From the NCBI GenBank assembly GCA_050250895.1, contig JBFWNU010000001.1:224001-288000 (forward strand): DNA of 64,000 nucleotides, read 5' to 3'. Positions 7,790 to 55,982 of this stretch are shown here, one piece after another (position 1 is the first letter of the stretch; each line of letters opens with the position of its first letter). The notes beneath the pieces are model-generated. The model saw nothing but the letters and a program-made list of their open reading frames with translations, ran no database searches and was not told where the DNA came from. Source of the stretch: Vulcanimicrobiota bacterium (GTDB taxonomy: Bacteria; Vulcanimicrobiota; Xenobia; Xenobiales; JADMJV01). Made by a program: the position numbers and the translations under genes.

Positions 7790-8971
7790 ATGCGCGTGTT
7801 GGTGCTGGGAGGGGCTGGCATGATGGGAGCCGGCACCATTCGTGATCTGCTCTCCGACCTTTCCCGGGGCATCTCGCAGGTGATTGCGGCCGACTTCCCG
7901 GCCGCCCTCGAACGCCTGCCTGAGGACCCCCGGCTGGTCAAGAGGCCCCTCGACGTCAACGACCAGCCGGCGCTGGCGGCGCTGCTGGCCGAATGCGACC
8001 TGTGCGTCAACGGCGTGCCCACCTTCGCCGGCCACCAGATGCAGCTTTTCGAGGCTTGTCTGGCGGCCCGGCGCACCTACGTCGACTATGGCGGCATGGG
8101 CGTTTATACGGTGCAGCAGAAGGCCGAGCACCAGCGCTTCGTCGAGGCCGGGGTGACGGCGGTGGTAGGGCTGGGAGCCGATCCGGGTCTCTCCAACGTC
8201 ATCTGCCGGGCCGTAGCCGATCGCCTCGATCAGATCGACAAGATCAACCTTTACTGGACGGCCACCTCGGTCGGCCCGGAGTGCCCGGTGCTGGTGCCTC
8301 CTTACTCCGTCTCGACGGTGTTGGCCGAGTACGCCAACCCCAGCCAGCAGTTCGTCGACGGTCGATTGCAAGAGATGCCGCCCCGGTCAGGGGTCGAGAC
8401 CATCGACCTGCCTGCGCCGTTCGGGCCGACCACCTTCATGTTCAGCCAGCACAGCGAGCCGCTGACGGTTCCCTTCGCCAAAGGCATCGCCGAGAAGGGT
8501 ATCCGCGAGTTCACCTGGCGGCTGGCCTTGCCCCACCGCGAACACGAGGCCTGGGTGGGTCTGGTCAAGGCCGGCTTTGGCGATTTCGACAACCCGGTCA
8601 GCGTGCCCGGAGGCACGGTGCGGCCGCTCGATGTGCTGCAAGCGGTCATCAACCGCAACCTGGCCGCCCATCCCGACCGACCCGAGGGCGAGGCCCACGA
8701 ACTGCACTTCGCTATCGGGCACGGCCGCAAGGCTGGCCACGCCACCCGAGTAACGGTGCGGGTGACGGGCCGACCCGATCCCCTCTACGACGGCTACGTC
8801 GACGCCGGCACCTCGATGAACATGTCGATCGGCGTTCAGCAGATCTTGCGGCGACCGCTGGTGCCGGGAGTGTGGGCTCCCGAGGAGTATTTCGAGGTCG
8901 AGCCCTATCTCGAAGAGGTCAGACGACGCCGCTTTCAGGTCGAGGTCGAAACCGTGATCACCGAAGCCTGA
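7790..8971 (+). CDS. saccharopine dehydrogenase family oxidoreductase
   Basis: Rossmann VLGGAGMMG, TYVDYGG, GLGADPGLSNV, HSEPLT and GVWAPE motifs. Confidence 0.9.
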   Translation: MRVLVLGGAGMMGAGTIRDLLSDLSRGISQVIAADFPAALERLPEDPRLVKRPLDVNDQPALAALLAECDLCVNGVPTFAGHQMQLFEACLAARRTYVDYGGMGVYTVQQKAEHQRFVEAGVTAVVGLGADPGLSNVICRAVADRLDQIDKINLYWTATSVGPECPVLVPPYSVSTVLAEYANPSQQFVDGRLQEMPPRSGVETIDLPAPFGPTTFMFSQHSEPLTVPFAKGIAEKGIREFTWRLALPHREHEAWVGLVKAGFGDFDNPVSVPGGTVRPLDVLQAVINRNLAAHPDRPEGEAHELHFAIGHGRKAGHATRVTVRVTGRPDPLYDGYVDAGTSMNMSIGVQQILRRPLVPGVWAPEEYFEVEPYLEEVRRRRFQVEVETVITEA

Positions 8972-36433: not shown

Positions 36434-37333
36434 TCAGCCCAAAAGGTGTTCGAAGAGGAGGAAAAAGACGCGGGCGTTGGGCAGGCTGTCGTACTGGAAG
36501 CGAATCTGACCGGAGCCAAAGAGGCGCCCCAGCCAACCGCTGTTCTCGAACTTCTCGCTGGTGAGAACGACGTAGCCCTTTTCGACGTCCAGCCCGCGCA
36601 AGTCGGACAGCGACCACTGCTCGGTGCCCGAGCCTTTGGTGAGGGCGAAGTGAGACTGGCCGATGTCGATGCGAATGCCGCCAGTTCGAATATTGAAGCT
36701 GACCGGCCGCCCCTGCTCGAGCTGAGCCAGGCAGCGTTTGAGATAGTGACGTGTCCAGGCGATTTCGGCTCCGTCGGCCAGGTAGAAATCGTGGCTGGTA
36801 TCGTCAGGAGGCCCATCTTTCTTAGAATATGAGCCGTTGAGCGAGAAGACATTGCGATTGGAGGCATCGTACCAGGAGTAGTCATAAGTGGTGCTGGTAT
36901 AGATACCGTTGGTGAAATGGCGCGTGGTGTTGACGCGCAGCTCCTCGGCTCTGGAAAACTCGCAGATCTGGCCTTTGGCGGTGGCCTGGCGGCTGCCCGA
37001 GAGACTGTAGGTTGCATAGCCCTCGGTGCCGATGTAGCTTAGCTTGCCACCAAAGCTCGTTCCGGCGACGCCCACCACGGTGCCCAGCCCGCCCCCGGCG
37101 AAAAAGAGCACGGTCGCCCCGGCGTCGATCCAGTTGCCGAAGACAAACCCAATCCCGGCGCAGGCCGCAGCGACCAGCGTGCTCCAGAAGAAGCGGCGCC
37201 CTGCCTCCATCGGCTCCTGGCTCTTCTTTAAAGAAGAGTAGCCCGACAACGGGTCGCCGATGGCAGGCGGTGGCGGTATGAAAAAGTCGGCCTCCGAGTC
37301 GACCGGCACGCCAGCATGGTTTACGTATGACAT
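36434..37333 (-). CDS. hypothetical membrane protein
   Basis: Two TM helices followed by a beta-rich domain; ATG at 37333 after AGGGGG. Confidence 0.7.
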   Translation of the reverse strand: MSYVNHAGVPVDSEADFFIPPPPAIGDPLSGYSSLKKSQEPMEAGRRFFWSTLVAAACAGIGFVFGNWIDAGATVLFFAGGGLGTVVGVAGTSFGGKLSYIGTEGYATYSLSGSRQATAKGQICEFSRAEELRVNTTRHFTNGIYTSTTYDYSWYDASNRNVFSLNGSYSKKDGPPDDTSHDFYLADGAEIAWTRHYLKRCLAQLEQGRPVSFNIRTGGIRIDIGQSHFALTKGSGTEQWSLSDLRGLDVEKGYVVLTSEKFENSGWLGRLFGSGQIRFQYDSLPNARVFFLLFEHLLG

Positions 37334-37412
37334 ACATCCCCCTGGTGGCTGGATTCGCTCGCCCGGGTTCCAACCCTTCGCAAGCAGGGCGTTCAGGAGG
37401 GAACAGATTCGG

Positions 37413-38342
37413 ATGATCGAACGTTCGTCGCCGATGAGATTAATTTCCGATTTTTCGATCAAACAGATAGATTCCGACTTTCTCATTTTCAAGCGTTTTG
37501 GAAAGTGCGTCTGCTCACTAGAGGGCGACACCGCACGACTTTTCCAACTCTACTATGAGGGAAAGACCCGACACCAAGCCGAGTCAGAACTTGGGCTTCC
37601 ATGCCTGCAAGCGGCCGAAGAACAACTGCGCGACCAGGGGTTACTCGCCCCTGACGTGTTACCTAGAATTCCCCAGGACCAGTTGACGAGGATCGAGCTC
37701 GCAAACGAGGTGCTGGTCTATCACCCTGTGCAAGGTACAGCCATGCTCCTCAACCAGACCATCGCCGCGTTGCTACCACAATGCGATGGTGAGACTACCG
37801 TCGAACTTGCCATCGACGCACTGAGCAAGAAATTCGAGATCGCGCCCGATACGGCCGAAGAGCTGCTTTGGGCAAGCCTGAAGGCGATGCGTGACCGGGG
37901 GCTGTTCCTGGCGCCGTTGCACCACGGATTGTCGCGACGGGCGTTTCTGAGCAGGTGGGCGGCTGCCGCCGCCCTGTTCCCGGTGATCGTCTCGGCCGCC
38001 GCTCCGCACGCAGCCGTTGCTGACAGTACGACATGCATCGTCAATGGAGATGCGGGTTGCCAGGCTCTCTTTCCGGGCTCGACCAGAGTCTTCACGACCT
38101 GCTGTCCGTGCACGGCGAATGCGACTCCCCCATGCCCCGGCGATGCAAACTGTCAACGACCCTATTTGAAAGATGGCAACAACTGCCTGGATGACACCCC
38201 CGACACCGGCGGCCTGACGGGCTGCTTTGTCTACATCGACTCCGGCCACCCGTTCGCTAACGCCCAAGATTCGTGCGCGGACGCCCGCAACTCGACTCAA
38301 GCCGACACCTTTGGCGGCTATGCCTGTTGCCGATGTCCGTGA
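37413..38342 (+). CDS. tandem PqqD/RRE domains fused to an RR leader and a Cys-rich C-terminal peptide
   Basis: Two three-strand/three-helix units (second: EVLVY...LLNQTIAALLPQCDGETTV...LKAMRDRGL), then LSRRAFLSRWAAAAALFPVIVS and a 12-Cys tail. Start 37413 or 37434. Confidence 0.82.
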   Translation: MIERSSPMRLISDFSIKQIDSDFLIFKRFGKCVCSLEGDTARLFQLYYEGKTRHQAESELGLPCLQAAEEQLRDQGLLAPDVLPRIPQDQLTRIELANEVLVYHPVQGTAMLLNQTIAALLPQCDGETTVELAIDALSKKFEIAPDTAEELLWASLKAMRDRGLFLAPLHHGLSRRAFLSRWAAAAALFPVIVSAAAPHAAVADSTTCIVNGDAGCQALFPGSTRVFTTCCPCTANATPPCPGDANCQRPYLKDGNNCLDDTPDTGGLTGCFVYIDSGHPFANAQDSCADARNSTQADTFGGYACCRCP

Positions 38343-39085: not shown

Positions 39086-39724
39086 ATGCCCATCCGTGTC
39101 TTGCTGGTCGACGATCACGCCATCGTGCGCGAGGGCCTGCGCATGCTGCTCAAGTTCGACCCTGACCTCGAGGTGGTGGGCGAAGCTTCAGACGGAGCCG
39201 AAGCCATCGAGCAAGCCCGTCAACTGACCCCCGACGTGGTCTTGATGGATCTACTCATGCCTCGGATGGACGGCATCGCCGCCACCGAGGCCATTCGCGA
39301 TGAGTTACCATCGGTGGAAGTGGTGGCCCTCACCAGCGTGCTCGAAGACGCCTCGGTGGTGGGCGCGGTCAAAGCCGGCGCCATCGGCTATCTGCTCAAG
39401 GACACCCGTGGAGACGATTTACGCCAGGCCATCAAAGCAGCCGCCGCCGGCCAGGTGCAACTGTCGCCGGCAGCCGCCAAGCGTCTGATGCGCGAACTCA
39501 AAGCCCCCTCGAGTCACGAGAGCCTGACCCCCCGCGAAGTCGAGGTCTTGCACCACCTGGCTCACGGTCTGTCCAACCGCGAGATCGCCGAACGCCTGGT
39601 GGTCGGCGAAGAAACGGTCAAATCTCACGTCTCGCACGTGCTGGCCAAGCTGGGGGCCCGCACCCGCACTCAGGCGGCCCTATTTGCCTGGCAGAAGGGG
39701 CTGGTGAGCCGCGATGCCTCTTGA
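39086..39724 (+). CDS. NarL/LuxR family response regulator
   Basis: LVDDH, DVVLMD, GYLLK; LTPREVEVL...VKSHVS HTH. Confidence 0.96.
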   Translation: MPIRVLLVDDHAIVREGLRMLLKFDPDLEVVGEASDGAEAIEQARQLTPDVVLMDLLMPRMDGIAATEAIRDELPSVEVVALTSVLEDASVVGAVKAGAIGYLLKDTRGDDLRQAIKAAAAGQVQLSPAAAKRLMRELKAPSSHESLTPREVEVLHHLAHGLSNREIAERLVVGEETVKSHVSHVLAKLGARTRTQAALFAWQKGLVSRDAS

Positions 39725-41174
39725 GCGCGCGCTCCAACTCGGCCCGACCTTCATGGCCGAATTGGCCAAGCTGACGCCAGCGGCCATGCTGTTGTTCGAC
39801 CAGCATCTCGAACCCATCGATTGCAACCCGGCCTTTGTGCGCCTGACCGGCCGCCAGCATGACAGTCAACCCTTCGAGTGCTTTAGCCGCGACGAACTCG
39901 AACGGGTGCGCGAGGCCCTGGAGCGACGCCAGGCCGATGAGCCGATCCGTTGGCCCGGGCGCGTCCAGACCCTGGACGGATACTGGCGCGAAGTCGAGAT
40001 TGTGGTCGTCTTCTTGATGGGCTACAGCCTGATGGTGATGCTCGACGTCACCGACTCGCGCCGGTTGGGGCGCAAACTCGAGGCTCTCAACCGATTCTCG
40101 AGCGCGGTGACGCTGTCCACCGGACTGGAAGCCACCCTGGATCTGCTGGCCGCCCAGGTGGTCGCGGCCACCGATGCGGTGGCGGCGGTGGTGCTGTTGC
40201 TCGACCCTGGCCCGCGAATCGATCGAGTCGGTCGAGCCGGCGTGCCCGGCGAGGTGCTAGAGGCGGCCTTTCAAATGTTCGCTAGCGGCATCAGGGTGCC
40301 CGCCTTCGAAGCCTACGAGACCGGCCAGACGCTGGTGGTGCCACCGCAGCAGCGAGAAGAGTTCTTGGCCGGCACTCGCCTGGGCGAACTGGTCGAGGCC
40401 CAGGGCTGGCAGCACCTGGTCTGCGTTCCCCTTGGCAAAGGGGTCATGAATTGCTTTTTCACCGAGCGCCTGCTGCCAACTCCCGACGACCTCTCGTTTC
40501 TCGAAACGCTGGGCCGATTCGCCACGGTGGCCATCGAGAACGCACGCCTCTTTGCCGAGGCCGAGGAGCGAGCCGTGGCCGAAGAACGCCAGCGGCTGGG
40601 AAGAGAATTGCACGACTCGGTCTCGCAGAGCCTCTACAGCATCGGCCTGGGCGCCCAGGCCGCCCTGGCCGCGCTCGAGGCCGGGTCACCCGACGAGACG
40701 CGCCAGACAATCGACTACATCCTGTCGCTGGCCCGCTCGGGTCTCGACGACATGCGCGCTCTGCTGTTCAAATTGCGACCCGAGGTCCTCGACGACGAAG
40801 GCCTGGTGGTCGCTCTCACCCGCCAGGCCGAATCGCTGCGGGTTCGTTACGGCTTGATTGTCGAGCTTGACCTGGGAGAAGAACCGCCACTTTCTCCCTC
40901 GATTCGACACGCTCTGTATCGCATCGCCAGCGAAGCCCTCCACAATGCCATCAAGCACTCGCGGGCCACCCGACTCAGAGTAAGTCTCAAGCAACGTCAA
41001 CGGCAGGTGGAACTCGAGATCGAAGACAACGGTGAGGGCTTCGTCCCTGAAGGTTGCAACGGAGGCCTGGGATTGACCACCATGCGCGAGCGAGCCGCCG
41101 AAGCCGGAGGGCAACTGCAGGTGCAGTCAGAGCCGGGTCAGGGAGCCCGGTTACTCACCACCATTCCGGTCTGA
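39714..41174 (+). CDS. PAS-GAF sensor histidine kinase (HisKA_3)
   Basis: ERQRLGRELHDSVSQ, EALHNAIKH, DNGEGF, GLGL. Confidence 0.95.
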   Translation: MPLERALQLGPTFMAELAKLTPAAMLLFDQHLEPIDCNPAFVRLTGRQHDSQPFECFSRDELERVREALERRQADEPIRWPGRVQTLDGYWREVEIVVVFLMGYSLMVMLDVTDSRRLGRKLEALNRFSSAVTLSTGLEATLDLLAAQVVAATDAVAAVVLLLDPGPRIDRVGRAGVPGEVLEAAFQMFASGIRVPAFEAYETGQTLVVPPQQREEFLAGTRLGELVEAQGWQHLVCVPLGKGVMNCFFTERLLPTPDDLSFLETLGRFATVAIENARLFAEAEERAVAEERQRLGRELHDSVSQSLYSIGLGAQAALAALEAGSPDETRQTIDYILSLARSGLDDMRALLFKLRPEVLDDEGLVVALTRQAESLRVRYGLIVELDLGEEPPLSPSIRHALYRIASEALHNAIKHSRATRLRVSLKQRQRQVELEIEDNGEGFVPEGCNGGLGLTTMRERAAEAGGQLQVQSEPGQGARLLTTIPV

Positions 41175-42346: not shown

Positions 42347-45193
42347 GTGAAACAAAACATATGGATTTTGCCAATCCTGCTTGGGTTGCTGGCGCTGCCA
42401 GGCTGGGCGGGAGACGGCAACATCGACAACGGAAAACTCAACCTGACCGTCTTCTTCAACTACGACGAGCAGGACAAAGCCTCTTGGGAACAGCTCTTCA
42501 AAGATGCCAACCCGGTGATGTTCAAGGCCACCGACGGGCGCCTGACCTTCGGTGAGATACGCTTCACCGACTGCCCTGGCGCTCGCGCCAAGGCCGACAT
42601 CATCATCAACGATGGCGCCGGACGCGCCTTCGCCGACGGGGGAATCCCCGGCCTGGGAACCAACGGGCGCTTCATTCAGCTCTACAAGAACTCGAACAAG
42701 AACGAGCCGAAGACTCTGGTCCACGAACTTGGCCACTACGCCTTCGGCTGCTACGACGAATACAAAGGCCGTCGCTGGGCCTGGGCCGGAATGCCGCCCG
42801 CCTGGCAAACCGAGACCACCGGAGGTTCGGTGTGGTTCGACGGCACCGGCGACCCTGCCACCAACCCCTGGTTTTGCGCCACTCAGGCCGAAGCCAACGG
42901 CACGACCTCGTGCATCATGGACTTCGCCAACGGTTGGAAGCCGGGTCGCATGAACTTCTGTCTCGACGGCGCTCACGCCGATCACCATGTGACCAGCCGC
43001 GTGTCGGGCTCCAAGCGCTATATCACCGACCAGCAACAGGTCAACGGCCATGCCTGCTGGAACGAGGTGGCCGCGGCCGTGGGCGGAAACGTTCCCGCCT
43101 CACCTCCTAACAACACCAGCGCGGTCAACGCCAACCCGACCTTCAAGACGGTGGACGGCGACGCCTACAACATCTGTATCGACCGCTCCGGCAGTATGTC
43201 CGGCGACCGCATCGTCAAAGCCCGTCTGGGCGGCACCACCGTGGTCGACCTGGCTCGCACCATGATGGGCATGATGCCTGGCGACAACCTGGGCGTCACT
43301 TCCTTTAGCTCAGGCGCCTCGACCAACTTTGCGGTGACCGAGATGACGGCCGCCACCCAGGCCGCTGCCAAAGCCGCCATCGGAACGATCAATGCTAGTG
43401 GCGGAACCGACATCGGAGCCGGTGTGCGCCAGGCCCTGGCCGACTTGATGACGGCCCAGACCAACAACGGCGAAGAGTTCTGCTCTCGCACCGTCTTTCT
43501 GCTCTCGGACGGTCAGGATAGCACCAACGTGGCCGCGCTGGTGGCCGACATCCAGGCGGCCAAGGCCACCGTCCACGCCATTGCTATCGGCTCGGGCGCC
43601 GACTCGGCCAAACTCTCGGCCATCGCCACCGGTTCCGGCGGCAACTTCTTCTTTCTGCCCCGCCAGCAAGAAGAGGTCTCGGCCCGCGGCGTGTTCTTTC
43701 GCGTAGGCGAAGAAGCTCTGCCGGGCATCATGGCCACCCTCTTCAACGAGGCGCGGGGTGGCAGCCAGGTGGCCGGTATCGACGGCCAGGCTATCGCCGG
43801 TCAATCGACCCAACACACCTTGACCGTCGACGGCTTCGTCGAGCGGGCTACCTTCTTGCTGGTGTCGGCTAACGAAGCCGATCCGCTGAGCCTGGCCCTG
43901 ACCGACCCCAACGGCAATAACATCGACCTCAACGCACCCCCAGCGGGCGTCACCGTCTCGATCCAACAGGGCGCCGTGATTGTCGACGTCGTCAATCCCG
44001 CCGGTGGCGACTGGATCGCCACCGTCGATGCCACGGCCACGGCCGCCGACCAAAACTATGACCTGCGCTTGCTGGCGATTTCGCCCGGTCTCATCGTGAC
44101 CGCCCAGGTCGACAGCGCCGCCGTCACCTTCCCGGCACCCATTCTGGTTACCGCCCGGGTTTCGGCCGGCCAGGCCCTGACCAACATCACCCATACCGTC
44201 GAGGTCTCTGACCCGTCCGGCAATATCACCAATATCACCCTGAGTGACGACGGCGACCTGTCCAATGGTGACCTGGTAGCCAACGACGGTATCTACTCAG
44301 GCTATTTCAAAGACTACACCGACAACGGAACCTATACATTCACCATCACCTACGACGGCTCGAACGCCCAGTATGCCACCGGCATCCTGCCCGCCGAGCC
44401 GGGTGGAGACCCATTCAACACCGGCAGCGTGCCCAGTTTCACCCGAGTAGCCTCGGTGGCCACCCTGGTCGACCTGGTCCCCGGCGGAGGCGGCACGGCT
44501 CTGCTGCCTCCCGCCAACGTCCGCCAAACGACCGACGACTCCGACTCGATCACCATTACCTGGGATGACACCAGCGGCGGGACGGCCTCCTTCAAGATCC
44601 AGCGCAGCTCGGACGGAGTGAACTTCCAGACCATCGACACCGTGGGTCCGGGCACGACCACCTACACCGACAACAGCCCCGGCGCAGGCAACTTCTTCTA
44701 CCAGGTCGTGGCTAACGTCACCGGCGTGGGCGACTCGCCGCCGTCCGAAGTGACCCAGGTCAACTTTGAAGACCTGGAGATGGCTCTGCAAGCCTTCCTC
44801 ACCGGGGGCGGCCAGACCGGCGGTGGAGTGAGCGGTTCGAGCGGTGGCACCAACCTCGACGACTTCTCTGGTTCGTCGTTCGGTTGCTTCATCGCCACCG
44901 CTGCTTACGGCTCGTACCTCAATCCCCATGTGGCCGCCCTGCGGGACTTCCGCGACGACTATCTCTTGACCAACCGCCCCGGCCGGGCCGTGGTCGACTT
45001 CTACTATCGCAACTCGCCGCCCATCGCCGAGAGGATCAGCCAATCGCCGATGCTGATGGGCCTGACCCGATTGGCACTCACCCCCATCGTCTACTCGGTG
45101 GAATACCCGCTGTTGCTCGTGTTGGCCCTCGGCTTCGTGCCCGCCTGCTGGCTATATCGACGCCGCCGACGCCTGGCACTTGCCAGACAGTAG
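42347..45193 (+). CDS. CLCA-like zinc metalloprotease + vWA + beta/choice-of-anchor X-like + FnIII + CFI-box-CTERM surface protein
   Basis: [26 protein letters not shown] and LLSDG (MIDAS), [13 protein letters not shown], Fn[28 protein letters not shown] + TM + RRRRR. Confidence 0.88.
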
Positions 45194-47741: not shown

Positions 47742-49904
47742 TTACGAATCGTGTCCAGCCTGATCAATGCGACTCAGCAGATGAAAGGCCTGACCGAGCA
47801 AGTGTCCGCGCACCACCAGAGTGCTGGCCAGGTGACGGTCCTCGAGCCGGTAAAGCTGATAGACGGCCCGGCGCCGCACGAACTGAGTGTAGACCGAGAC
47901 AGGGCCGAATTGCCGCTCGCTGACCATGGCCGCTTCGACTTTATTCAGCTGAGCCTGGACTAACGATTCATAGCCCATCAAGTCCAGGTTCGGCTCGAGT
48001 AGCTCCTCGATGGCGTCCCGCGAGGTGTCGAGCAAAGCCTTCAACTGTGCGAAGCTGGCTCGAGCCCGATACCTGGCCCACTCGTCGAGAGGCAGTCCAC
48101 CCTTCCCCTCTTGCAACAGCCATTCTAGAAAACGCCAATGAACGAACTCGTCGCGCTCAGGCAGCGGGATGGCCTGCAAAAGATAGCCCAAAGCTCGTTC
48201 TCGGGCTTGACCGGCCGGCCCTGAAAAGCGGGCGGCAAAGGCGAGCTCTTCGAGCAAGTCGCGATCGTCAGGCTGAGCCTCGAGGGCCGAGCAGAGTTGC
48301 TCGTACGCCCTCGCATCGTCGCCCTCGACCCTCAGCATCTCGGCCTCGAAGCGATGGCCCCAGGCTTTGAGGCGGTTCTCCTGCAAGCTGGCGCTCAGAG
48401 CGCTACCATGGCGTTGGCGGGCCGAAGCCAGGTCTCCTCGAGCCCGGTCGACCAGGGCCGCACGGTGCAAGACCCAGAGTCGGGCCCGAGGCTGCATAGG
48501 TCGGCCCAACAACTCTTCGAACCCGGGTCGGGCGAGCTTGTGAGGCGCTTCCAGGCTCGCTAGAATCAGCTCGAGTTCGTTGAGTTCGAGTTCAGCTTCG
48601 GGCAGTTCCAGTTTGTCCAGTAGCCCGTGAAGGGGTTGGCAAGCGCCCCGGGCCCTTTCGAACTCGAGCTTCTCCAGGTGGGTCTTGATGCCGGTTACCA
48701 TGCTCGAGCGGATGGTTAGTCGCAGATGGCGGGCCCGCCCGCTGAGTCCCATACTATCGAGGTGGTCGGCCAGGGCCAGGTTGCTGTCGAGATCTTTCTG
48801 CCTGCCGGTGGCCAACCCGTGATGAGCCAACCAGTGCTCGAGCACTCCCAGGTTCTCGGCCGCGAGTTGCTCGGGCGGCTGGGCCAGCACCGCCTGCACG
48901 TCGGCCACCAGATACTCGCGATCGCTGCCAGCGAGTGCGTCGGGATTGCGACACACCTCGACCAGCAGGTCGACGGCCCAGGCTTTCAGCTGGTCGACGA
49001 CGGCCGTATAGGTATCGTTCTCGACCAGGTCAGAATGAGACAGGTTCTTCTTCAGCTCGGGAGCTACCACCAGACCGGTCAGACAGTTGAGGCCGAGCAA
49101 CTTGTGAGGGCGACGAAACAGGATGCCCTGATGGATGAAGGCCAGGCCTCGACTGGTTCCACCCAGGGCCAGCACGGCAGCCACCGGGGCTGGCCCGGCG
49201 GGCGCCGAGGGGAAGCGACCATCGGGTAGCGCCGAAACCTTGGCCCGGGGGTCGAGGGATGGATAAATCTTGACCCCCATGCACGGAGAGGGCAACTGGA
49301 TAGGCTCGTTGAGAAGGTCACCGTCGACTTTGAGCTGCAAAGGGGCATGGCGACACACCCTCATAAGGTTGGCCAATTCGGGATGAACCTTGATCACCCG
49401 GCTGGTCAGACCAAACCCTTTGTCCACCACCACCCGATTGAGGGACAGGCCGGTGCGCGGCTCGAGGCTCTCGATTTTCTGCTGACTGCCTCGCCAGGTC
49501 AGCCGATTGGCCTGGTCGAGGCGGTAAGATTCGACGATGATCTGCTTTGGCTCGATGGCCTGAGCAGCGTGCAGCCCTACAGCCAGTTCGGTGAGGTGGC
49601 GCGGCATGCCGGTGGTGTCATAGAGAAACCCCGACAAGTGCTCGAGCTGCTCGGCGGTGGCCGCCTCGCCGTCATAGAGAAACTCGCAACGGGTGAGACT
49701 GCTTTTCACCTCGAGAAAAGTCGCCTGTCCGGCTACGGCCGCGGCCACCATCTGCACCACGTAAAGCCCTGGGTCGAGCAGCTGAAATTTGCGCAGCTTC
49801 TCGTCAGCCGCCTCGGAGCTGATGGTAAAGCGCCCCACCGATTCGAACTCGCCCCCCTGCGCAAACTCTTGTAGATACGTGTTCAGGGCATCGATCTCGG
49901 GCAT
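47742..49904 (-). CDS. hypothetical protein, possible degenerate GHKL-like N-domain and TPR-like C-terminus
   Basis: GRFTISSEAADEKLRKFQL.DP..YVVQMVAAAVA N-terminus; helical repeats. Fold assignment tentative. Confidence 0.65.
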   Translation of the reverse strand: MPEIDALNTYLQEFAQGGEFESVGRFTISSEAADEKLRKFQLLDPGLYVVQMVAAAVAGQATFLEVKSSLTRCEFLYDGEAATAEQLEHLSGFLYDTTGMPRHLTELAVGLHAAQAIEPKQIIVESYRLDQANRLTWRGSQQKIESLEPRTGLSLNRVVVDKGFGLTSRVIKVHPELANLMRVCRHAPLQLKVDGDLLNEPIQLPSPCMGVKIYPSLDPRAKVSALPDGRFPSAPAGPAPVAAVLALGGTSRGLAFIHQGILFRRPHKLLGLNCLTGLVVAPELKKNLSHSDLVENDTYTAVVDQLKAWAVDLLVEVCRNPDALAGSDREYLVADVQAVLAQPPEQLAAENLGVLEHWLAHHGLATGRQKDLDSNLALADHLDSMGLSGRARHLRLTIRSSMVTGIKTHLEKLEFERARGACQPLHGLLDKLELPEAELELNELELILASLEAPHKLARPGFEELLGRPMQPRARLWVLHRAALVDRARGDLASARQRHGSALSASLQENRLKAWGHRFEAEMLRVEGDDARAYEQLCSALEAQPDDRDLLEELAFAARFSGPAGQARERALGYLLQAIPLPERDEFVHWRFLEWLLQEGKGGLPLDEWARYRARASFAQLKALLDTSRDAIEELLEPNLDLMGYESLVQAQLNKVEAAMVSERQFGPVSVYTQFVRRRAVYQLYRLEDRHLASTLVVRGHLLGQAFHLLSRIDQAGHDS

Positions 49905-50015
49905 GGCCGATGGGTTCGGCCCCGCCCGGGTGCGTCCTCCGGATGGGGTCTGCCTATCCGCCCAGGTCTCGCCTGGCGCCTCGGCTCGGGTTAGGCTGAG
50001 AGGAAGGGAGGCCTT

Positions 50016-50174
50016 ATGAATTGGCTTGCTCAACTCGGAATCTTCATCCTCGTGCTGGCGGCGCTCAAGTATTTACTGGGCCTGCCCATTTCTATCGTGG
50101 GCAGCCTGGTCCTGACCGTGCTGCTGACGCTCGTTTTCGCAGGGATCAGCAGCTTCAGTCGACGCGACACTTAG
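50016..50174 (+). CDS. small two-TM membrane protein, 52 aa
   Basis: MNWLAQLGIFILVLAALKYLLGLPISIVGSLVLTVLLTLVFAGISSFSRRDT; GGGAGG ribosome-binding site. Confidence 0.75.
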   Translation: MNWLAQLGIFILVLAALKYLLGLPISIVGSLVLTVLLTLVFAGISSFSRRDT

Positions 50175-50216
50175 CCGTTTAAGCTCTGATTCAGCCCCGA
50201 TTGGGATAGTCCAGGT

Positions 50217-50768
50217 GTGAGGATCCCATCGGTCAAAAAAGACCAGCTGGCCGGTTATCTCCAACGGCAGCGCCAAACGTTGCAAGAGAGCGACCTGCCG
50301 GAGCCCCGTCGAGGGCAGGCGATTCGACTGGTCGAGCGCGATCTAGCCCTGCTTCAGGGCGCCCGCGGCGAGACGGTCGAGCAAATGCGCGCGAACCTGG
50401 CTCTGGGACGCAGCCTGGTTCACGGAGCCGCACTCACCATCGGCGCCGGGGCCGTGGCGGGGGCCTGCCTGGCCCTGACCGGAGCTATCTCGGGTCGCGA
50501 TTTCTCTCTCGCCTTCGCAGGGCTGGGCGCCCTGGGTGTGGCCACCATGGCCGTGGCTACCTTTGGGGTGCAAAAGCCCGCCGTGGGGGAAGTACTCGAC
50601 AGCCTGGACTCGCGCATCCAGAGCTTGCAGGCCATCGCGGTGGACTCCCGCCACCAGGTCGAAGAGCTCCTCCAACCCGCGCCCGTCGCCGATATTCAGA
50701 TCGACGACGAAGGCGTGCAGCTGGGCGATGTCTTTCTGCCCATCGAGCGCGACAACAGCTATTTCTAA
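50217..50768 (+). CDS. hypothetical membrane protein
   Basis: Two Gly/Ala-rich TM helices flanked by coiled segments. Confidence 0.7.
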   Translation: MRIPSVKKDQLAGYLQRQRQTLQESDLPEPRRGQAIRLVERDLALLQGARGETVEQMRANLALGRSLVHGAALTIGAGAVAGACLALTGAISGRDFSLAFAGLGALGVATMAVATFGVQKPAVGEVLDSLDSRIQSLQAIAVDSRHQVEELLQPAPVADIQIDDEGVQLGDVFLPIERDNSYF

Positions 50769-51424
50769 CAGTCGTGGGTTATCGTGGTGGTAAAGGTGTC
50801 GGTGTCGGTTGGCCCACACGGTCCCTGCACCCGGAAAGTCACGTCAGTGCTACCCGCGCTTAAGAAGGTGAAGCTGAACATCGATTGGGTGGCGCTGGAG
50901 AATTCGAAAGTCCCGTCATCACCGATGTCGACGGCATACTCGCAAATCATGCAGGTGTGGGTCGAGCCGGAGAGGTCCCAGGTATGCGTCCTGGTGCCCG
51001 TGCAGGTATCCGTGAACCCAAGGGTGGGAGGGGCGGTGGGACAGGGGCAACTCGAGGCCGAAGCGGCCGCCGCCGGAGTGGTCACTGACGCCATCAGCGG
51101 CAGGACGGCCGCAGCCGCTCCCCAGCGCCGCAAGAAATCGCGCCGACTGACCTGACTGGGAAAGCAATCCGAGACCAGTCCTCGGCCGTGCAGTTCGGTT
51201 AAAGTCATGGCCACCAACTCATCAGCGGCTTCTGAGGGCAGCCCGAGGTGGTGGGCCAATTGCCGGGCCACCTCGGCCCGGCTGCGCCGACCGTCGCTGA
51301 ATCCCCACACCAGGGCGGCGGTGGGATTGAGGTTGTGGACCTTGCCCCCATCGGGCTCCATCAACAGCACTTCTTCACCGACCTGGGTGGCCAGCACCCG
51401 GGTATTCGCTTTCGGCATCTTCAT
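50765..51424 (-). CDS. PqqD/RRE domain fused to an RR leader and a Cys-containing PKD-like C-terminal domain
   Basis: EEVLLM...VHNLNPTAALVWGFSDGRRS...LTELHGRGLV, then VSRRDFLRRWGAAAAVLPLMASVTTPAAAASASSCPC; DLSGS..YAVDIGDDGTFE PKD-like; AGGAG ribosome-binding site. Confidence 0.85.
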   Translation of the reverse strand: MKMPKANTRVLATQVGEEVLLMEPDGGKVHNLNPTAALVWGFSDGRRSRAEVARQLAHHLGLPSEAADELVAMTLTELHGRGLVSDCFPSQVSRRDFLRRWGAAAAVLPLMASVTTPAAAASASSCPCPTAPPTLGFTDTCTGTRTHTWDLSGSTHTCMICEYAVDIGDDGTFEFSSATQSMFSFTFLSAGSTDVTFRVQGPCGPTDTDTFTTTITHDC

Positions 51425-51439
51425 TCTATTGTTCTCCTA

Positions 51440-53872
51440 TTAGGGTCGAAATCTCAAGGTGGTGCCGCTGGGGACCGGGGCGGTCCATTGAGTGCCCTCG
51501 GACCCGTCGGCGTTCTCGATGCCGATGGTCATTGCTCCCCCTTCATCGGCATCGGGGTGTCCGAAGTCGGTATCGATGAAGTGGAAGAAGATATCGTTGT
51601 TGCCATTGTCGAGCATCTCGAGCTGGAAGGTGCCTTCGCCCACGGCCAGATAACCCACCTGAGAGCCGCTGACGAAAACCGGCAAGCCATAGCCGACGTT
51701 CTTCCACTCGATGGCCAGAAAAGTACCATCGCCCTCGAGACGGACCTCGGTGTTGGCCGTGGGATGCAGCGTACCCCAGAAGGGAGCGAGCAGATTGTCG
51801 GGGTTGGTGGCCGACGGCAGTTGCTGGTTGCTGAGCGTGAAGGTCGAGGTGTCAAACTGGGCGATGCCAAAGTTGGTCACCGCCAGGAGAGCGTCGGCGA
51901 TGTCGGTGCCGTAGAACTCGAAGTGGAAGCCTGAAGAGACAGTGAAGGCCGCGATCCCGAAGGGGCTGGCGCCCCCGGGATTGAGCCCGGAAAGACTGGC
52001 AATGGCGCCGGTGGTGAAGGTGCGAGGCGAGAAGGGCTGTTGGGTGACCTGATAGACGACGCCGGCCCCATTGGTGGTAAAATCGGCCGTGTTCGAGGTG
52101 TCGCTACCGGCGTTGGTGACGGCGATGGTGCCCGTTCCGGTCGCCACCCCGCTGGGGATGGTGGCCATGATCGTGTTCTCGTCCCAACTGTCGATGGTGA
52201 GGTTGACGGCCGGGTTGACTCCGATGGTCAGACTGACCGTGCCGGTGGTCGAGCCGAAACCGACCCCGGTGAGGGTGACCTGGGTGCCCTCGCTGCCGCC
52301 CTCGGGCGCGATCCCGTCGAGAAAGATGGTGTGGGTGATATCGGCCGAGAGCGCCGCATTGGCATCGAGGCGTCCACCGCTTTGACATTGGCCCGCATAG
52401 TTGCCGGCGCCTGCGTTGGCCGACTCCATCAAACGTTTGCGCACGTCAGAATAGCTGATGCCGGCGAAGTTCGCATAGAGCAGGGCGGCCGCGCCCGCCA
52501 CGTGGGGAGCGGCCTGAGAGGTGCCGACGGCTCCTCCGATGCCGGTGTCGCTGGTGTGGGAAATCCCCAGGATAAAATAACCGCTGCCACCGGTCGGTGC
52601 GGTCGCGCCCGAATCGGCGGTGTCGCCACCGGGGGCGAACAGATCGACGGCGGTAGCGCCAATATTGGAGAACTCGGCCACCGTGTCGGCCGGGCTATGG
52701 GCCCCCACGGTGACGATGTTGGGAGACTTGTAAGCGGCCGGGAAGCGAGGGCTGCTCTCGAGATCGCTGGCCTGGTTACCCGAGGCGCACACACAAAGAA
52801 TGTTGCTGTCAGCGGCCCGATCGATGGCGTCTTTGAGAGCCCGACTCGCGCTATTAGAAGACAAACTCAGGTTGATGACGTTGGCGCCATTGTCGGTAGC
52901 ATAGTCGACCGCCTTGACGACGGCCGCCAGTTCGACCGAATTGGAAGCGCCCGCCACTTTGAGAATCATCAGTTGACAATCATAGGCGAGACCTACGATT
53001 CCGGTATTGTTTCGTTCGGCCCCAATGATGCTGGCCACGTTTCCACCGTGGGAATTCTCGTCGGTGACGTCGCCGTCGTCGGTGCTGGTGAAGCGAAAGT
53101 CGGCGCCGTTGATATCGTCGACATAGCCGTTGCCGTCATCGTCGATGAGATTGCCCGCCGTCTCGCCGGGATTGACCCACAGGTTGTCATCGACCTCGAC
53201 GTGGGTGGTCCTGATCCCCGTATCGATGACGGCCACCACCACCCCCGAACCGGTCGAGGTGTTCCAGGCATCGCAGGCTCGCGAATCCACACCGGCAATT
53301 CCGGCTGGAAAGTTACTGTCTCCCGGCACATTCGAGGCCCCATCGTTGTTGAGACCCCATTGCTGCCCGAAAAAGCCATCGGTGGGCGCCACCGTATCTT
53401 CCAGTTCCATCAGATAGTTGGGCTCGACATAGTCGACATCGGGGTTAGCGCTCAAGGCGAACACAGTGGCCGGAACGGTCTGGCCCGAATTGATCTCGAG
53501 GACTCCGGCCTCGATGCCGTCGAGCACGTCGACCACGGTGGTATCCACGCCGGTCTGCTGCGCCAGCACTTCGAGGCGTTGCCCGCGCTGCAGGACAGAC
53601 ACTTCTCTGCCCAGGGCCGAGCGAGGGTTGATCCCGTTCTTGAACTTGACGATGACCTGGTTTTGGACATAGGCGCCTCGCGGCACCAGATCAGCCCGAA
53701 CGTTCGAGACGAAGGGTCCTGTCAACACAGCTGGATTGGCCACCGCAGCCGTCCCGCCCGCAGATGGCTCGGACGACGTTCCGCCTGCCGTGCCCCCGCT
53801 GCCGCCTCCGCAGCCAGCCAGAACCAGAACAAATAAGGCCGCCAAGAGCCTCGCCCAATGCCTCTCCATCAT
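51440..53872 (-). CDS. S8 subtilisin-like serine protease lipoprotein with IPT/TIG domain
   Basis: Lipobox LAGC; propeptide; triad VIDTG / HGGNVAS / GTSQAAPHVAG; oxyanion ASGN; IPT module. Confidence 0.93.
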   Translation of the reverse strand: MMERHWARLLAALFVLVLAGCGGGSGGTAGGTSSEPSAGGTAAVANPAVLTGPFVSNVRADLVPRGAYVQNQVIVKFKNGINPRSALGREVSVLQRGQRLEVLAQQTGVDTTVVDVLDGIEAGVLEINSGQTVPATVFALSANPDVDYVEPNYLMELEDTVAPTDGFFGQQWGLNNDGASNVPGDSNFPAGIAGVDSRACDAWNTSTGSGVVVAVIDTGIRTTHVEVDDNLWVNPGETAGNLIDDDGNGYVDDINGADFRFTSTDDGDVTDENSHGGNVASIIGAERNNTGIVGLAYDCQLMILKVAGASNSVELAAVVKAVDYATDNGANVINLSLSSNSASRALKDAIDRAADSNILCVCASGNQASDLESSPRFPAAYKSPNIVTVGAHSPADTVAEFSNIGATAVDLFAPGGDTADSGATAPTGGSGYFILGISHTSDTGIGGAVGTSQAAPHVAGAAALLYANFAGISYSDVRKRLMESANAGAGNYAGQCQSGGRLDANAALSADITHTIFLDGIAPEGGSEGTQVTLTGVGFGSTTGTVSLTIGVNPAVNLTIDSWDENTIMATIPSGVATGTGTIAVTNAGSDTSNTADFTTNGAGVVYQVTQQPFSPRTFTTGAIASLSGLNPGGASPFGIAAFTVSSGFHFEFYGTDIADALLAVTNFGIAQFDTSTFTLSNQQLPSATNPDNLLAPFWGTLHPTANTEVRLEGDGTFLAIEWKNVGYGLPVFVSGSQVGYLAVGEGTFQLEMLDNGNNDIFFHFIDTDFGHPDADEGGAMTIGIENADGSEGTQWTAPVPSGTTLRFRP

Positions 53873-53961
53873 ACCTCCCACAGCCCCTCCAGGGTCTGCC
53901 AGAAGTGTTACTTTGTATGTTCACCGAAAAGTCCCTAGTTTGTATCTAAAATATGTAGGTT

Positions 53962-54426
53962 TTAGGAAGAGAGCCTTTCCATCAGCAGAATCCGACCTTT
54001 GGACTCGCCGGTTAGAGTGAATCCCTGGTGAGCCCAGAAGGCCAGGCCATCGTGATTGTCGCGCAGCACCCCCAGGCGCACGCGCCGACAACCCCAGGCT
54101 GCGGCCTGGGCTTTGGTGAAGTCGACGGCCTCACGACCCAATCCCAGACCCCGTCGGTCTTCGGCCAACAGCAAAAGGCCCAGAAAGGCTGCCTCGGCGT
54201 CGGGGTAGCCCTGGACCAGATCCAGGCATCCCTGCAGACCATCCTGCTCCAACCCCCAGACGAACTTCTGCTCGGGCGGTGTGCCCGGGGGCGTCTCTTG
54301 AAGCAGTTGGCGGGCGTCCTCAAGGCAGGGCGGACGTCCCTCGGCTAGCTGAAAATAGGCGGGGGCCCGCTCGAACAAGGCCAGGAGCTGGTCATACTCG
54401 TTGGTGAGCCGGCGAAAGGTGAGCAT
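53962..54426 (-). CDS. GNAT family N-acetyltransferase
   Basis: RRGLGLG acetyl-CoA motif, N..GLAFW..QGF. Confidence 0.9.
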   Translation of the reverse strand: MLTFRRLTNEYDQLLALFERAPAYFQLAEGRPPCLEDARQLLQETPPGTPPEQKFVWGLEQDGLQGCLDLVQGYPDAEAAFLGLLLLAEDRRGLGLGREAVDFTKAQAAAWGCRRVRLGVLRDNHDGLAFWAHQGFTLTGESKGRILLMERLSS

Positions 54427-54500
54427 GCTCGAGTCTTGGACCCGACACCATCCGCCCCCTCTGCAAGAGGGATCTGCTCAGACAGACCAAAGCCGGGGCC

Positions 54501-55982
54501 ATGAAGGCGAGCAAGATCTTTCTAGGGGTGGTGGGGCTAACCACCCTCCTGCGGTTGCTGGTCATCGGCTGGTCGGGTCCGGCCTTCGAAGAGGCCTACT
54601 ATTGGAACTACGCCCAGCATCCCCAGCTGAGCTACTTTGACCATCCCCCCATGGTGGCCTGGCTCATCGGCGTTTCCACCCGCCTCGGCACCGACCACGC
54701 CTTCTTCATCCGACTGCCGGCCGTGTTGCTGTTTGTGGGCAGTAGCTGGGTCGCCTACCGACTGGCCCTGGCGACACTCGGCCAGAAAGAAGCTGACGGA
54801 ACGGTCATCCTGATGGCCTGCGTTCCCGCCTTCACGCTCTACTCGCTCGCCATGACCCCCGACCCTCCCCTCTTGTTCTTGTGGGGCCTGGGCCTGTATC
54901 TGGGCTGGCAGATGGTAGAGCAGCGACGTCCCTGGCTCTGGCTGGGAATCGGCCTTTGCACGGGTCTGGCCATGTTGAGCAAGTACACGGGAGCCCTCCT
55001 ACCCTTCGGAATCTTCGCTTACCTGGCCCAGCGTCGGGACTGGAAACTGCTGTTTTGCCCTCAGATGGCCCTGGGGGCCGGGCTGAGTTGGCTGGTCTTC
55101 TCGCCGGTGGTGATCTGGAACGCCAACAACGGCTGGGCCTCGTTTCTCTTCCAGGGGGTCGAGCGTTACGGCCAGGCCACCAGTGTGGCTGAGCGGCTGG
55201 GCTCGTGGGCCTTTCAAGCCATCCTGTGGAGCCCCTTCGGCCTGGTGGCCCTGGTGGCGGCCCTGGTCTGGGCCTGGCGTCGACGAGAAAACCCCGGCCT
55301 GCTGTATCTATGGTGGTCGTGCATGCCCCTGTTGGGACTGCTTTCTCTGGTTTCGCTCAAACGGCTGGTCCAGATCAACTGGCCGCTGCCGGCCTATCTG
55401 CCCGCGGCCATTCTGGTGGCCGCCTATTGGCGCGAAGGACTCGAGGAGGGTCGCCACCGCGGTTGGGTGACGGCCACGTTGCTGACCACCGGGTTCTTGA
55501 GCCTGATACCCTACTTCGGCACTCTGATACCCTGGGCCGCTCTCAACAGCATCGACACCGTCCACGGCTGGTCTGAGGCCGCGGTTCGCGTTGACCAGGA
55601 AAGAGAGCGCCACCGGGCGAGCTTCGTGGGCGGCTACGGCTATGAGGTTGCCAGCGAACTTGCCTTCCATCGCCGCGACCCTCGGCACACGCTCTCGCGC
55701 AATCTTTTCTGCGAAATCGCCAAGAGCTACACTTTCTGGCAAGATGTCAATGACTATCGAGGCCAGACCGGAATCATCGTAGCCATCCCCCGCGAACCCT
55801 TCGACGAGCGACTGATGACGATGTATTTCGACGGCTACGAGAAACTCGAGCCCCTGGTCGTCTATCGCGGAGGTCAACCCCTGCGGGAATACGCTCTCTA
55901 CGTGGGACACGGCTACAAAGGTGTAACCCCGGGTTCACAACTCAGGCCTGCAGGTAAGGGCTACGTCAGCTCGCCCGAGTAG
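54501..55982 (+). CDS. ArnT/PMT-like (GT-C) membrane glycosyltransferase
   Basis: EEAYYW, SYFDHPPMVAW, TPDPPL, LSKYT; polytopic. Confidence 0.9.
   Translation: MKASKIFLGVVGLTTLLRLLVIGWSGPAFEEAYYWNYAQHPQLSYFDHPPMVAWLIGVSTRLGTDHAFFIRLPAVLLFVGSSWVAYRLALATLGQKEADGTVILMACVPAFTLYSLAMTPDPPLLFLWGLGLYLGWQMVEQRRPWLWLGIGLCTGLAMLSKYTGALLPFGIFAYLAQRRDWKLLFCPQMALGAGLSWLVFSPVVIWNANNGWASFLFQGVERYGQATSVAERLGSWAFQAILWSPFGLVALVAALVWAWRRRENPGLLYLWWSCMPLLGLLSLVSLKRLVQINWPLPAYLPAAILVAAYWREGLEEGRHRGWVTATLLTTGFLSLIPYFGTLIPWAALNSIDTVHGWSEAAVRVDQERERHRASFVGGYGYEVASELAFHRRDPRHTLSRNLFCEIAKSYTFWQDVNDYRGQTGIIVAIPREPFDERLMTMYFDGYEKLEPLVVYRGGQPLREYALYVGHGYKGVTPGSQLRPAGKGYVSSPE

Follow-up and report, generated by a model that had tools for sequence, protein, structure and literature searches.

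A bacterial protein family joining a PqqD-type recognition element, an internal twin-arginine-type signal and a variable tail, with recurrent kinase-like and nucleotidyltransferase neighbours

Genes at the locus

We analysed a stretch of 64,000 nt from a Vulcanimicrobiota genome (assembly GCA_050250895.1, contig JBFWNU010000001.1, forward-strand positions 224,001 to 288,000), hereafter the window, which contains a gene (copy 1) whose protein fuses three parts: a PqqD-type recognition element (RRE) as known from peptides that are made on ribosomes and modified after translation (RiPPs), an internal twin-arginine-type signal, and a variable tail. Copy 1 belongs to a very large, apparently undescribed family, and two genes recur beside its members, one for an HprK-related kinase-like protein and one for an NTP_transf_5 nucleotidyltransferase. 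The tail is most likely exported by the twin-arginine translocation (Tat) system and released by signal peptidase. For the window, this family with its two partners is the finding, and the S8 subtilase gene next to copy 1 is secondary (Table 1).

The RRE of copy 1 is matched by PF05402 (PqqD) over residues 18-84 with E 5.2e-11 and 43.1 bits, above the cut-off of 23.4, while TIGR04353 (PqqD family chaperone) gives 21.2 bits, below its cut-off of 35. Residues 92-125 (VSRRDFLRRWGAAAAVLPLMASVTTPAAAASASS) follow the order of a Tat-type signal, from SRRDFLRRW through the uncharged segment GAAAAVLPLMASVTT to PAAAASAS, so that motif, hydrophobic region and AxA site are all present (SRRDFLRRW...AAAASA). 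Judged from these residues, a cut could fall at ASA/S (signal peptidase I) or at a lipobox-like ASS/C126; the latter would leave six Cys in the tail which, speculatively, is enough for three disulfides. SRR is preceded by a GTC codon, and the 12 codons upstream hold no ATG, GTG or TTG in frame, so the PqqD domain and the signal form one real fusion and not the result of an overlooked internal start. The C-terminal 94 residues are Thr-rich and carry 7 Cys. This tail has no paralogue in its own genome and no homologue in 40 related genomes. A collection of 5.8 billion clusters yielded just two orthologues that share it (P0001, 92% identity; P0002, 74%), and a scan of metagenome contigs with copy 1 as query found no relative. 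An origin of the tail as a duplicate of a domain of the neighbouring S8 protein was ruled out (best BLASTP E 2.2).

A second family member (copy 2) lies 13 kb away, and a six-frame motif scan of the window returned these two copies and one unrelated match. Copy 2 consists of a degenerate extra PqqD-like stretch, a PqqD domain (E 2.2e-8), a signal of the SRRAFLSRW type (LSRRAFLSRWAAAAALFPVIVSAAAPHAAVADS) and a tail with 13 Cys; over a full-length alignment the two copies are 25% identical. A subfamily with tandem RREs seems to exist, since relatives of about 300 aa with two matched stretches occur elsewhere (P0006, P0007, P0090, P0096, P0137). Copy 2 is translationally coupled to a kinase-like gene without P-loop, whose protein matches an alignment of HprK-like proteins with an hhalign probability of 94% (E 1.4e-7, 196 columns). 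Directly after this pair, the forward strand encodes a response regulator of the LuxR type and a histidine kinase (39086-41174), and two-component genes recur near further copies of the genome (a cluster of 9).

Table 1. Coordinates of the family genes and their immediate partners in the window
Feature	Position	Strand	Basis or remark
Copy 1, fusion gene of RRE, twin-arginine signal and PKD-like tail	50765..51424	-	ORF (open reading frame) of 219 aa
Copy 1, PqqD/RRE domain (about residues 10-85)	51170..51397	-	PF05402, AF2 (AlphaFold2), Foldseek
Copy 1, internal twin-arginine-type signal (residues 92-125)	51050..51151	-	sequence, weak TIGR02811 match, family statistics, AF2
Copy 1, variable tail (residues 126-219), Thr-rich, 7 Cys, PKD-like beta-sandwich	50768..51049	-	Foldseek, Atlas, Pfam
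Copy 2 of the family, within ORF 37260..38342	37413..38342	+	likely start ATG 37413, behind AGGAGG
HprK-related homologue without P-loop	38333..39028	+	ATG overlaps the end of copy 2 (ATGTCCGTGA)
Spacer of 15 nt, TAGGAGAACAATAGA, with AGGAG ribosome-binding site	51425..51439	-	DNA
S8 subtilase lipoprotein, 813 aa (alternative start ATG at 53872)	51440..53881	-	ORF, Pfam, NCBIfam

A large family with one module and variable tails

With the module (PqqD plus signal) cast as a profile of 123 positions, the 9.5-Mb genome gave 28 matches at E≤1e-5, of which 26 cover the whole module and one of these 26 is degenerate. The genome thus holds about 25 full copies at 24 loci, including one pair in tandem. 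Among 1.84 billion representative proteins the same profile found 11879 at E≤1e-3 and 5173 at E≤1e-10. Because of the 26 whole-module matches in one genome and the thousands of proteins elsewhere, the resemblance between copies goes far beyond chance. Within the phylum, 57 of 301 genomes have a match at E≤1e-8 (a tally that takes in two unpublished genomes, G227 and G240, each matching the PqqD part only), and whole-module matches are found mainly in the order and class of the window, with a few elsewhere. The source annotations of the listed family proteins read 'hypothetical' or 'PqqD'. The parts themselves, i.e. the RRE, the Tat signal and tailoring genes for a kinase, nucleotidyltransferase or sulfotransferase, are already known, and we found no description of their combination into RRE, internal Tat signal and variable exported tail in the literature covered, which takes in few subscription journals.

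Tails and lengths were inspected in the best 150 of the 11879 matches, and alignment statistics refer to 147 proteins. All 150 span the module (roughly positions 1-123), measure 120-352 aa and end in hypervariable tails. The twin arginine is present in 141 of the 147 aligned members, at a median index of 97 (counted from 0), and the fuller pattern [STGNA]RRx followed by two hydrophobic residues in 132. R94 and P109 are invariant, R95 and P117 nearly so. The uncharged run after the twin arginine has a median length of 28 aa and a median Kyte-Doolittle value of 1.92; an AxA-like site follows in 146/147, at a median distance of 30 aa from the arginines. Even Cys numbers, which would be expected of Cys that pair into disulfides outside the cytoplasm, were found in 88 of the 99 tails with at least 4 Cys. 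The genome encodes one TatC.

In 140 family proteins the tail was measured, and its length lay between 3 and 229 aa. Many of the 150 inspected tails are peptides of 20-40 aa of the type C-x6-C-x5-CC-x3-C-x4-C with weak Pfam matches to knottin-type families, and others are Thr/Pro-rich, collagen-like, made of His/Asp repeats or nearly absent. The domain types recognised in tails (PKD, collagen, SH3_3, PknH_C and vWA) are extracytoplasmic ones, which, as far as domain assignment goes, speaks for export. A member of 646 aa with a vWA tail, directly followed by an NTP_transf_5 gene (L078, G002:C11, 4910-6850), demonstrates that large folded domains can follow the same module. In the genome of the window, inspection by eye assigned 21 tails to a Cys-rich type (about 80-145 aa, 11-23 Cys, many ending in the motif C..AR......Y.CC..C[ST]), three to a short Thr/Gly-rich type without Cys (12-24 aa) and one, that of copy 1, to the PKD-like type; the Cys number is even in 17 of 22 copies. 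Two of the short tails, Thr-rich and of 12 and 24 aa, belong to the tandem copies (L011 and L014, G000 C1:897366-901354), which have as neighbours a methyltransferase, Sulfotransfer_2, an HprK-like gene (C1:899180-899482) and two sulfotransferase-looking ORFs.

An initial annotation, made from the letters of the window, had noticed that the leader of copy 1 closely parallels the one 13 kb away, and both sequences bear this out in every detail. It had also pictured a genome-dispersed system in which a constant RRE and leader module carries variable cargoes, including folded domains, and the copy number, the spread of tail lengths and the vWA-tailed member agree with this. Its description of the cargo as unrelated applies to copy 1, but most other copies in the genome seem, by eye, to share one diverged Cys-rich domain.

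Kinase-like and nucleotidyltransferase genes as recurrent neighbours

Gene neighbourhoods were compared at 20 loci from relatives, picked solely by their match to the module, and at 31 distant loci, which were fetched by the motif [ST][IL]xAPTPAMA and represent one motif-defined subfamily. HprK-related proteins of about 250-300 aa occur at 10 of the 20 relatives' loci and NTP_transf_5 (PF14907) at 6, with one or the other at 14. The distant loci come from Gemmatimonadota, Armatimonadota, Acidobacteriota, Abditibacteriales, Entotheonella, a cyanobacterium, Solirubrobacterales and Xenobia, and there an HprK-like gene was found within about 2 kb in 19/31, NTP_transf_5 in 17/31 and either of them in 24/31. 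Often the kinase-like gene, the NTP_transf_5 gene and the family gene form a tight triplet with overlapping stops and starts. The HprK-like proteins match TIGR04352 in both sets, with E 1e-11 to 1e-18 among relatives (43-64 bits against a cut-off of 200) and E 3e-9 to 4e-18 in all 12 distant proteins tested. Many of those from relatives carry a P-loop (GxSxSGKSTL), often beside a paralogue that lacks it. One relative's locus has a MauE/DoxX-type membrane protein between the HprK-like gene and the family member (L072, G008:C137, 5423-6382), and a distant cassette (L136) holds a GNAT acetyltransferase gene inside (7692-8483).

The neighbours of the 24 loci in the genome of the window are heterogeneous. 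Of 240 candidate ORFs, 159 neighbour proteins were scanned, those dropped being mostly short ORFs and family members, and no radical-SAM, YcaO, lanthipeptide or similar enzyme was found among them. Two homologous CHAT-domain proteins (905 and 981 aa) are encoded at a distance of a few kb from different family copies (L054 and L057; G000 C5:204200-206917 and C4:290288-293233). The genome also has stand-alone PqqD genes, several of them near HprK-like and/or NTP_transf_5 genes (C9:228-242 kb, C2:589-596 kb, C4:127-134 kb, C1:3477-3481 kb and others), and no convincing separate precursor gene with a Tat leader was seen beside the 8 stand-alone PqqD loci examined.

Predicted structure of copy 1

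The AF2 model of copy 1, built with the 147-row alignment, has a mean pLDDT (predicted local distance difference test) of 79.4, with residues 1-100 at 91-97. Its RRE has the three-stranded sheet (11-15, 18-23, 28-32) and three helices (34-42, 49-60, 64-80) of a winged helix, all at pLDDT 94-97. In Foldseek searches, the best PDB matches were B1 elements of lasso peptide systems, TbiB1 (5v1u) and 6jx3, with a template-modelling (TM) score by target of 0.84. The tail is modelled as a beta-sandwich of low to moderate confidence (pLDDT 54-77). On this region PKD domains reached TM scores by target of 0.52-0.62, among them PKD1 of PrtV (4l9d; 0.61, E 1.4e-2), the Pfam model PF00801 remained under its cut-off (E 0.068, 13.6 bits against 23.5), an Atlas structure search returned PKD_4 domains of S8 peptidases at TM 0.37, and an Atlas feature search gave no usable match.

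Between the two domains, residues 94-107 (RRDFLRRWGAAAAV) are predicted to be helical and residues 111-115 (MASVT) to form a beta-strand, at pLDDT 79-91. The V/M-x-S-V segment after LP is a strand in both AF2 models, that of copy 1 and that of copy 3b, a copy with a Thr-rich tail of 24 aa in which residues 107-111 form the strand at pLDDT 65-69. Copy 3b has no other strands outside the RRE, so this one can pair only with the RRE sheet. RREs grip leader peptides as an added beta-strand, and we infer from the models that LPxV(T/S)S(I/V)xAP, the conserved part of the signal, is held by its own RRE in the same manner. A complex prediction of the RRE (1-85) with its own signal (86-128), run without controls, scored 0.17 against a mark of 0.32 and speaks neither for nor against binding.

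Export of the tail and alternative explanations

Twin-arginine signals that carry an AxA site send their proteins to Tat export and to cleavage by signal peptidase. The account we favour, and which we rate as slightly more probable than its opposite, is that family members are pre-pro-proteins with a cytoplasmic RRE, an internal twin-arginine signal and a variable tail that would be exported and cut at the AxA site. Several observations weigh against it. Known Tat signals sit at the N-terminus, whereas the family signal is internal, near residue 93, with the arginines of copy 1 at residues 94-95. Pfam TAT_signal recognises only 4 of the 147 members even at E≤0.1, and the TIGR02811 TAT-target model matches copy 1 weakly (residues 89-123). 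The Cys number of the copy 1 tail is odd. The putative docked strand has moderate pLDDT only (65-79). As regards the partner enzymes, the 147-row alignment has no Ser or Thr position that comes close to being invariant, so that no modification site can be named; the neighbour counts at the distant loci come from a single subfamily; and no HprK-like or NTP_transf_5 gene was found near copy 1, which has only the S8 gene, the GNAT gene and unrelated genes around it. Since neither enzyme gene is nearby, any modification of copy 1 would have to act in trans or be lost.

In another explanation, rather unlikely in our view, the hydrophobic segment is an uncleaved signal-anchor with N-in/C-out topology, inserted by Sec/YidC or Tat. 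The RRE would then be a cytoplasmic adaptor or receptor and the tail would be displayed outside, with no leader and no product. A folded N-terminal domain followed by a single hydrophobic segment is indeed a type II topology, the 11 of 141 members with tails of at most 15 aa would fit tail-anchored RRE proteins, and Atlas clusters of PqqD with AhpC/Redoxin resemble membrane-anchored thiol oxidoreductases. However, the segment carries the invariant P109 and the nearly invariant P117, its helix in the AF2 model comprises just 14 residues (94-107), short for a stable anchor, and both the AxA-like site and the twin arginine are kept beyond what the positive-inside rule needs. Moreover, the many knottin-like mini-peptides among the tails are typical of released products.

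The second alternative concerns the S8 gene. Here the family protein would be a precursor of the RiPP type, and the adjacent S8 enzyme, as a dedicated cassette protease, would take off its leader (RRE plus RR segment) in LanP style; the initial annotation had proposed processing by the subtilase as a possibility, and we regard this alternative as improbable. Locally the two genes are closely linked. They are co-oriented, the TAA stop of the intact S8 gene lies exactly 15 nt before the ATG of copy 1 at 51424, the distance given initially and confirmed by coordinates and DNA, and a contig of run X2 (~93% identical) covers 51304-51644 and bridges the junction, so that the adjacency is present in a close relative. 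The S8 protein has a LAGC lipobox, a fervidolysin-type prodomain, a clear catalytic Peptidase_S8 domain (E 6.7e-46), a TIG domain and a C-terminal region of about 200 aa, in this order; the lipobox follows a hydrophobic segment at the N-terminus (LAALFVLVLAGC), as read from the translation. Its best NCBIfam matches, mycosin and PatA/G, are both under cut-off, as it is for every specific protease model, and no lanthipeptide-protease model matched.

With 39 S8 matches in the genome, corresponding to about 36 genes, an S8 gene lies within 6 kb of the family at 5 of 24 loci (1.18 expected under random placement, P about 0.006) and within 1 kb at 2 of 24 (0.29 expected, P about 0.03); this null is lenient and ignores the clustering of secretome genes, and the enrichment is modest. 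The operon-like position is seen for copy 1 only among the copies of the genome. Among the relatives' loci S8 was found at one of 20, where a family member is followed by Sulfotransfer_2 and then S8 (L068), and it was not seen among 36 neighbour ORFs scanned from the 31 distant loci. S8 is therefore a local companion of copy 1 and not the usual partner of the family. Furthermore, as a lipoprotein it would reach its substrate only after export. For the RR leader the best interpretation is a twin-arginine signal that already ends in its own signal-peptidase site, hence no dedicated leader protease is needed, and the 159 scanned neighbours include no lanthipeptide, radical-SAM or YcaO enzyme. Of the initial proposal, routing of cargo for export agrees with what the RR and AxA statistics, the Cys parity and the presence of TatC suggest, leader removal by S8 finds no support at the family level, and the expected variability of cargo and a pattern of neighbours both emerged from the enumeration of copies, but the pattern is that of HprK-like and NTP_transf_5 genes and not of S8.

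Finally, an annotation artefact, in which translation starts just before SRR to yield an ordinary Tat or Sec pre-protein and PqqD is a separate gene or an untranslated frame, is very improbable: an in-frame ATG, GTG or TTG does occur within 12 codons before the arginines in 15 of 26 copies in the genome (in copy 2, TTG at 2 and 6 codons), but these are mostly TTG, copy 1 and 10 others (11/26) have none, a good ribosome-binding site precedes the ATG at 51424, PqqD and signal share one frame without stop in 150/150 matches listed, and PF05402 recognises 146/147 aligned members.

Other genes in the window

The next gene upstream of S8, 80 nt away and likewise on the reverse strand, encodes a GNAT acetyltransferase (53962-54426), and a PMT_2 (ArnT-like) glycosyltransferase gene (54501-55982, forward strand) is divergent from it. 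A scan for promoters and terminators over 50000-54700 gave nothing decisive. The 763-aa protein encoded on the reverse strand at 47742-50033 has no Pfam match and belongs to an expanded family in the genome. A homologue lies beside family copy 5 (25% identity over 358 aa, E 2e-18), which we treat as chance because residues 1-420 of the 763-aa protein find about 26 matches genome-wide, self included. On the forward strand, 42347-45193 encodes a secreted protein of 948 aa with a C-terminal motif, a membrane segment and an Arg-rich end, which may be a sorting signal.

Proposed route and its significance

In the route that we favour, the PqqD/RRE domain of ~85 residues would fold in the cytoplasm and probably either hold its own signal in cis or recruit tailoring enzymes. 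In the first case it would bind LPxV(T/S)S(I/V)xAP of the signal as an added beta-strand; in the second, which does not exclude the first, it would bring the kinase and the nucleotidyltransferase to the pre-protein, and the partners, by analogy with lasso clusters, may modify it before export. The freed signal would then engage Tat, which takes cargo that is folded or carries modifications. Because Tat signals keep their N-terminus in the cytoplasm, the RRE would stay inside. The variable tail would leave the cytoplasm and be cut at the AxA site (in copy 1 at ASA/S by signal peptidase I, possibly at ASS/C126 by lipoprotein signal peptidase), while a stub of RRE and signal would remain behind. 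The S8 enzyme, located in the periplasm or on the surface, may trim the PKD-like product or act as its partner, and removal of the family leader would do without it. In most lineages this system would be a three-gene cassette of the family gene, the HprK-related gene and NTP_transf_5, and in the genome of the window mostly a set of orphaned copies.

A stricter version, modification-coupled export, would have the RRE mask its own twin-arginine signal until the kinase-like protein and NTP_transf_5 have modified the pre-protein, upon which Tat would take over. We give it a minor share of likelihood. If true, it would represent a new class of leader-guided maturation acting on mini-proteins as well as whole folded domains, with about 25 dispersed precursors in this genome served in trans.

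Export of the tail by the favoured route would mean that thousands of soil and wastewater bacteria secrete disulfide-rich mini-proteins and small domains in this way, from a precursor that joins three usually separate things, the RiPP recognition element, the Tat signal and the product. For the sets of HprK-related kinase, PqqD and nucleotidyltransferase genes that are catalogued but unexplained, the family would then supply a likely substrate. Folded proteins would be added to the targets of leader-guided maturation, and nature would provide an example of a signal peptide under the control of a domain in its own chain. It also appears to be a large untapped source of knottin-like bacterial peptides.

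Comparison with known systems

LanP-type subtilases remove lanthipeptide leaders, and the locus of copy 1 resembles such systems in the S8 fold encoded beside a leader-bearing gene. Here, however, the S8 protein carries a lipoprotein signal as well as additional TIG and C-terminal domains, the family does not keep it as a conserved partner, and no LanB/C/M-type match was found among the scanned neighbours of copy 1. Nif11/nitrile-hydratase-type leaders and prochlorosins are long-leader RiPP precursors with dispersed, hypervariable cores. The family likewise combines a conserved leader (about 125 aa) with a variable core, in about 25 copies with diverse tails that are mostly far from candidate enzymes. 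The leader of the Nif11/prochlorosin type is only a substrate and has a GG site, whereas that of the family consists of an RRE and a Tat signal, and no lanthipeptide synthetase or comparable enzyme was identified among the neighbours scanned. An adjacent RiPP modifying enzyme, in particular, is absent from copy 1.

Lasso clusters come closer in their set of proteins. In these clusters the linear precursor receives a phosphate from an HPr-kinase homologue, and this phosphate is decorated with hexose by a nucleotidyltransferase (PMC8498205). The lasso set of B1 RRE, paeninodin-type kinase and pseudomycoidin-type nucleotidyltransferase is mirrored by the PqqD-type RRE of the family, with B1 elements as its best structural matches, and by the HprK-related P-loop protein and NTP_transf_5 of its cassettes, and a sulfotransferase stands beside some copies. 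In contrast to lasso clusters, no lasso cyclase or B2 protease was present in the loci scanned, the RRE is fused to its presumed substrate, the leader is Tat-like and tails can be folded domains. Lasso kinases target a C-terminal Ser, which just 8 of 141 family members have.

The same kinds of proteins are also adjacent in the HPr-rel-A system (TIGR04352 kinase A, TIGR04353 PqqD family chaperone, TIGR04355 kinase B), which to our knowledge is catalogued in NCBIfam without an assigned function. TIGR04352 and TIGR04355 are the best NCBIfam matches of the family partners, and TIGR04353 matches the RRE weakly. The partners score 36-65 bits against the TIGR04352 cut-off of 200 and the PqqD part 20-26 bits against 35, so far below the curated cut-offs that the family proteins are relatives and not members of this system. 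The TIGR04353 model spans 74 positions, to which the family adds the fused signal and the tail.

Lastly, the proposal has a counterpart in the chaperones TorD, DmsD and NapD, which bind Tat signals and withhold them from the translocase until maturation is done. As in these systems, a cytoplasmic domain would bind a twin-arginine signal, a binding which for the family is predicted from models. TorD, DmsD and NapD are separate proteins with other folds that serve cofactor enzymes, whereas the putative binder of the family is an RRE fused in cis to the signal itself.

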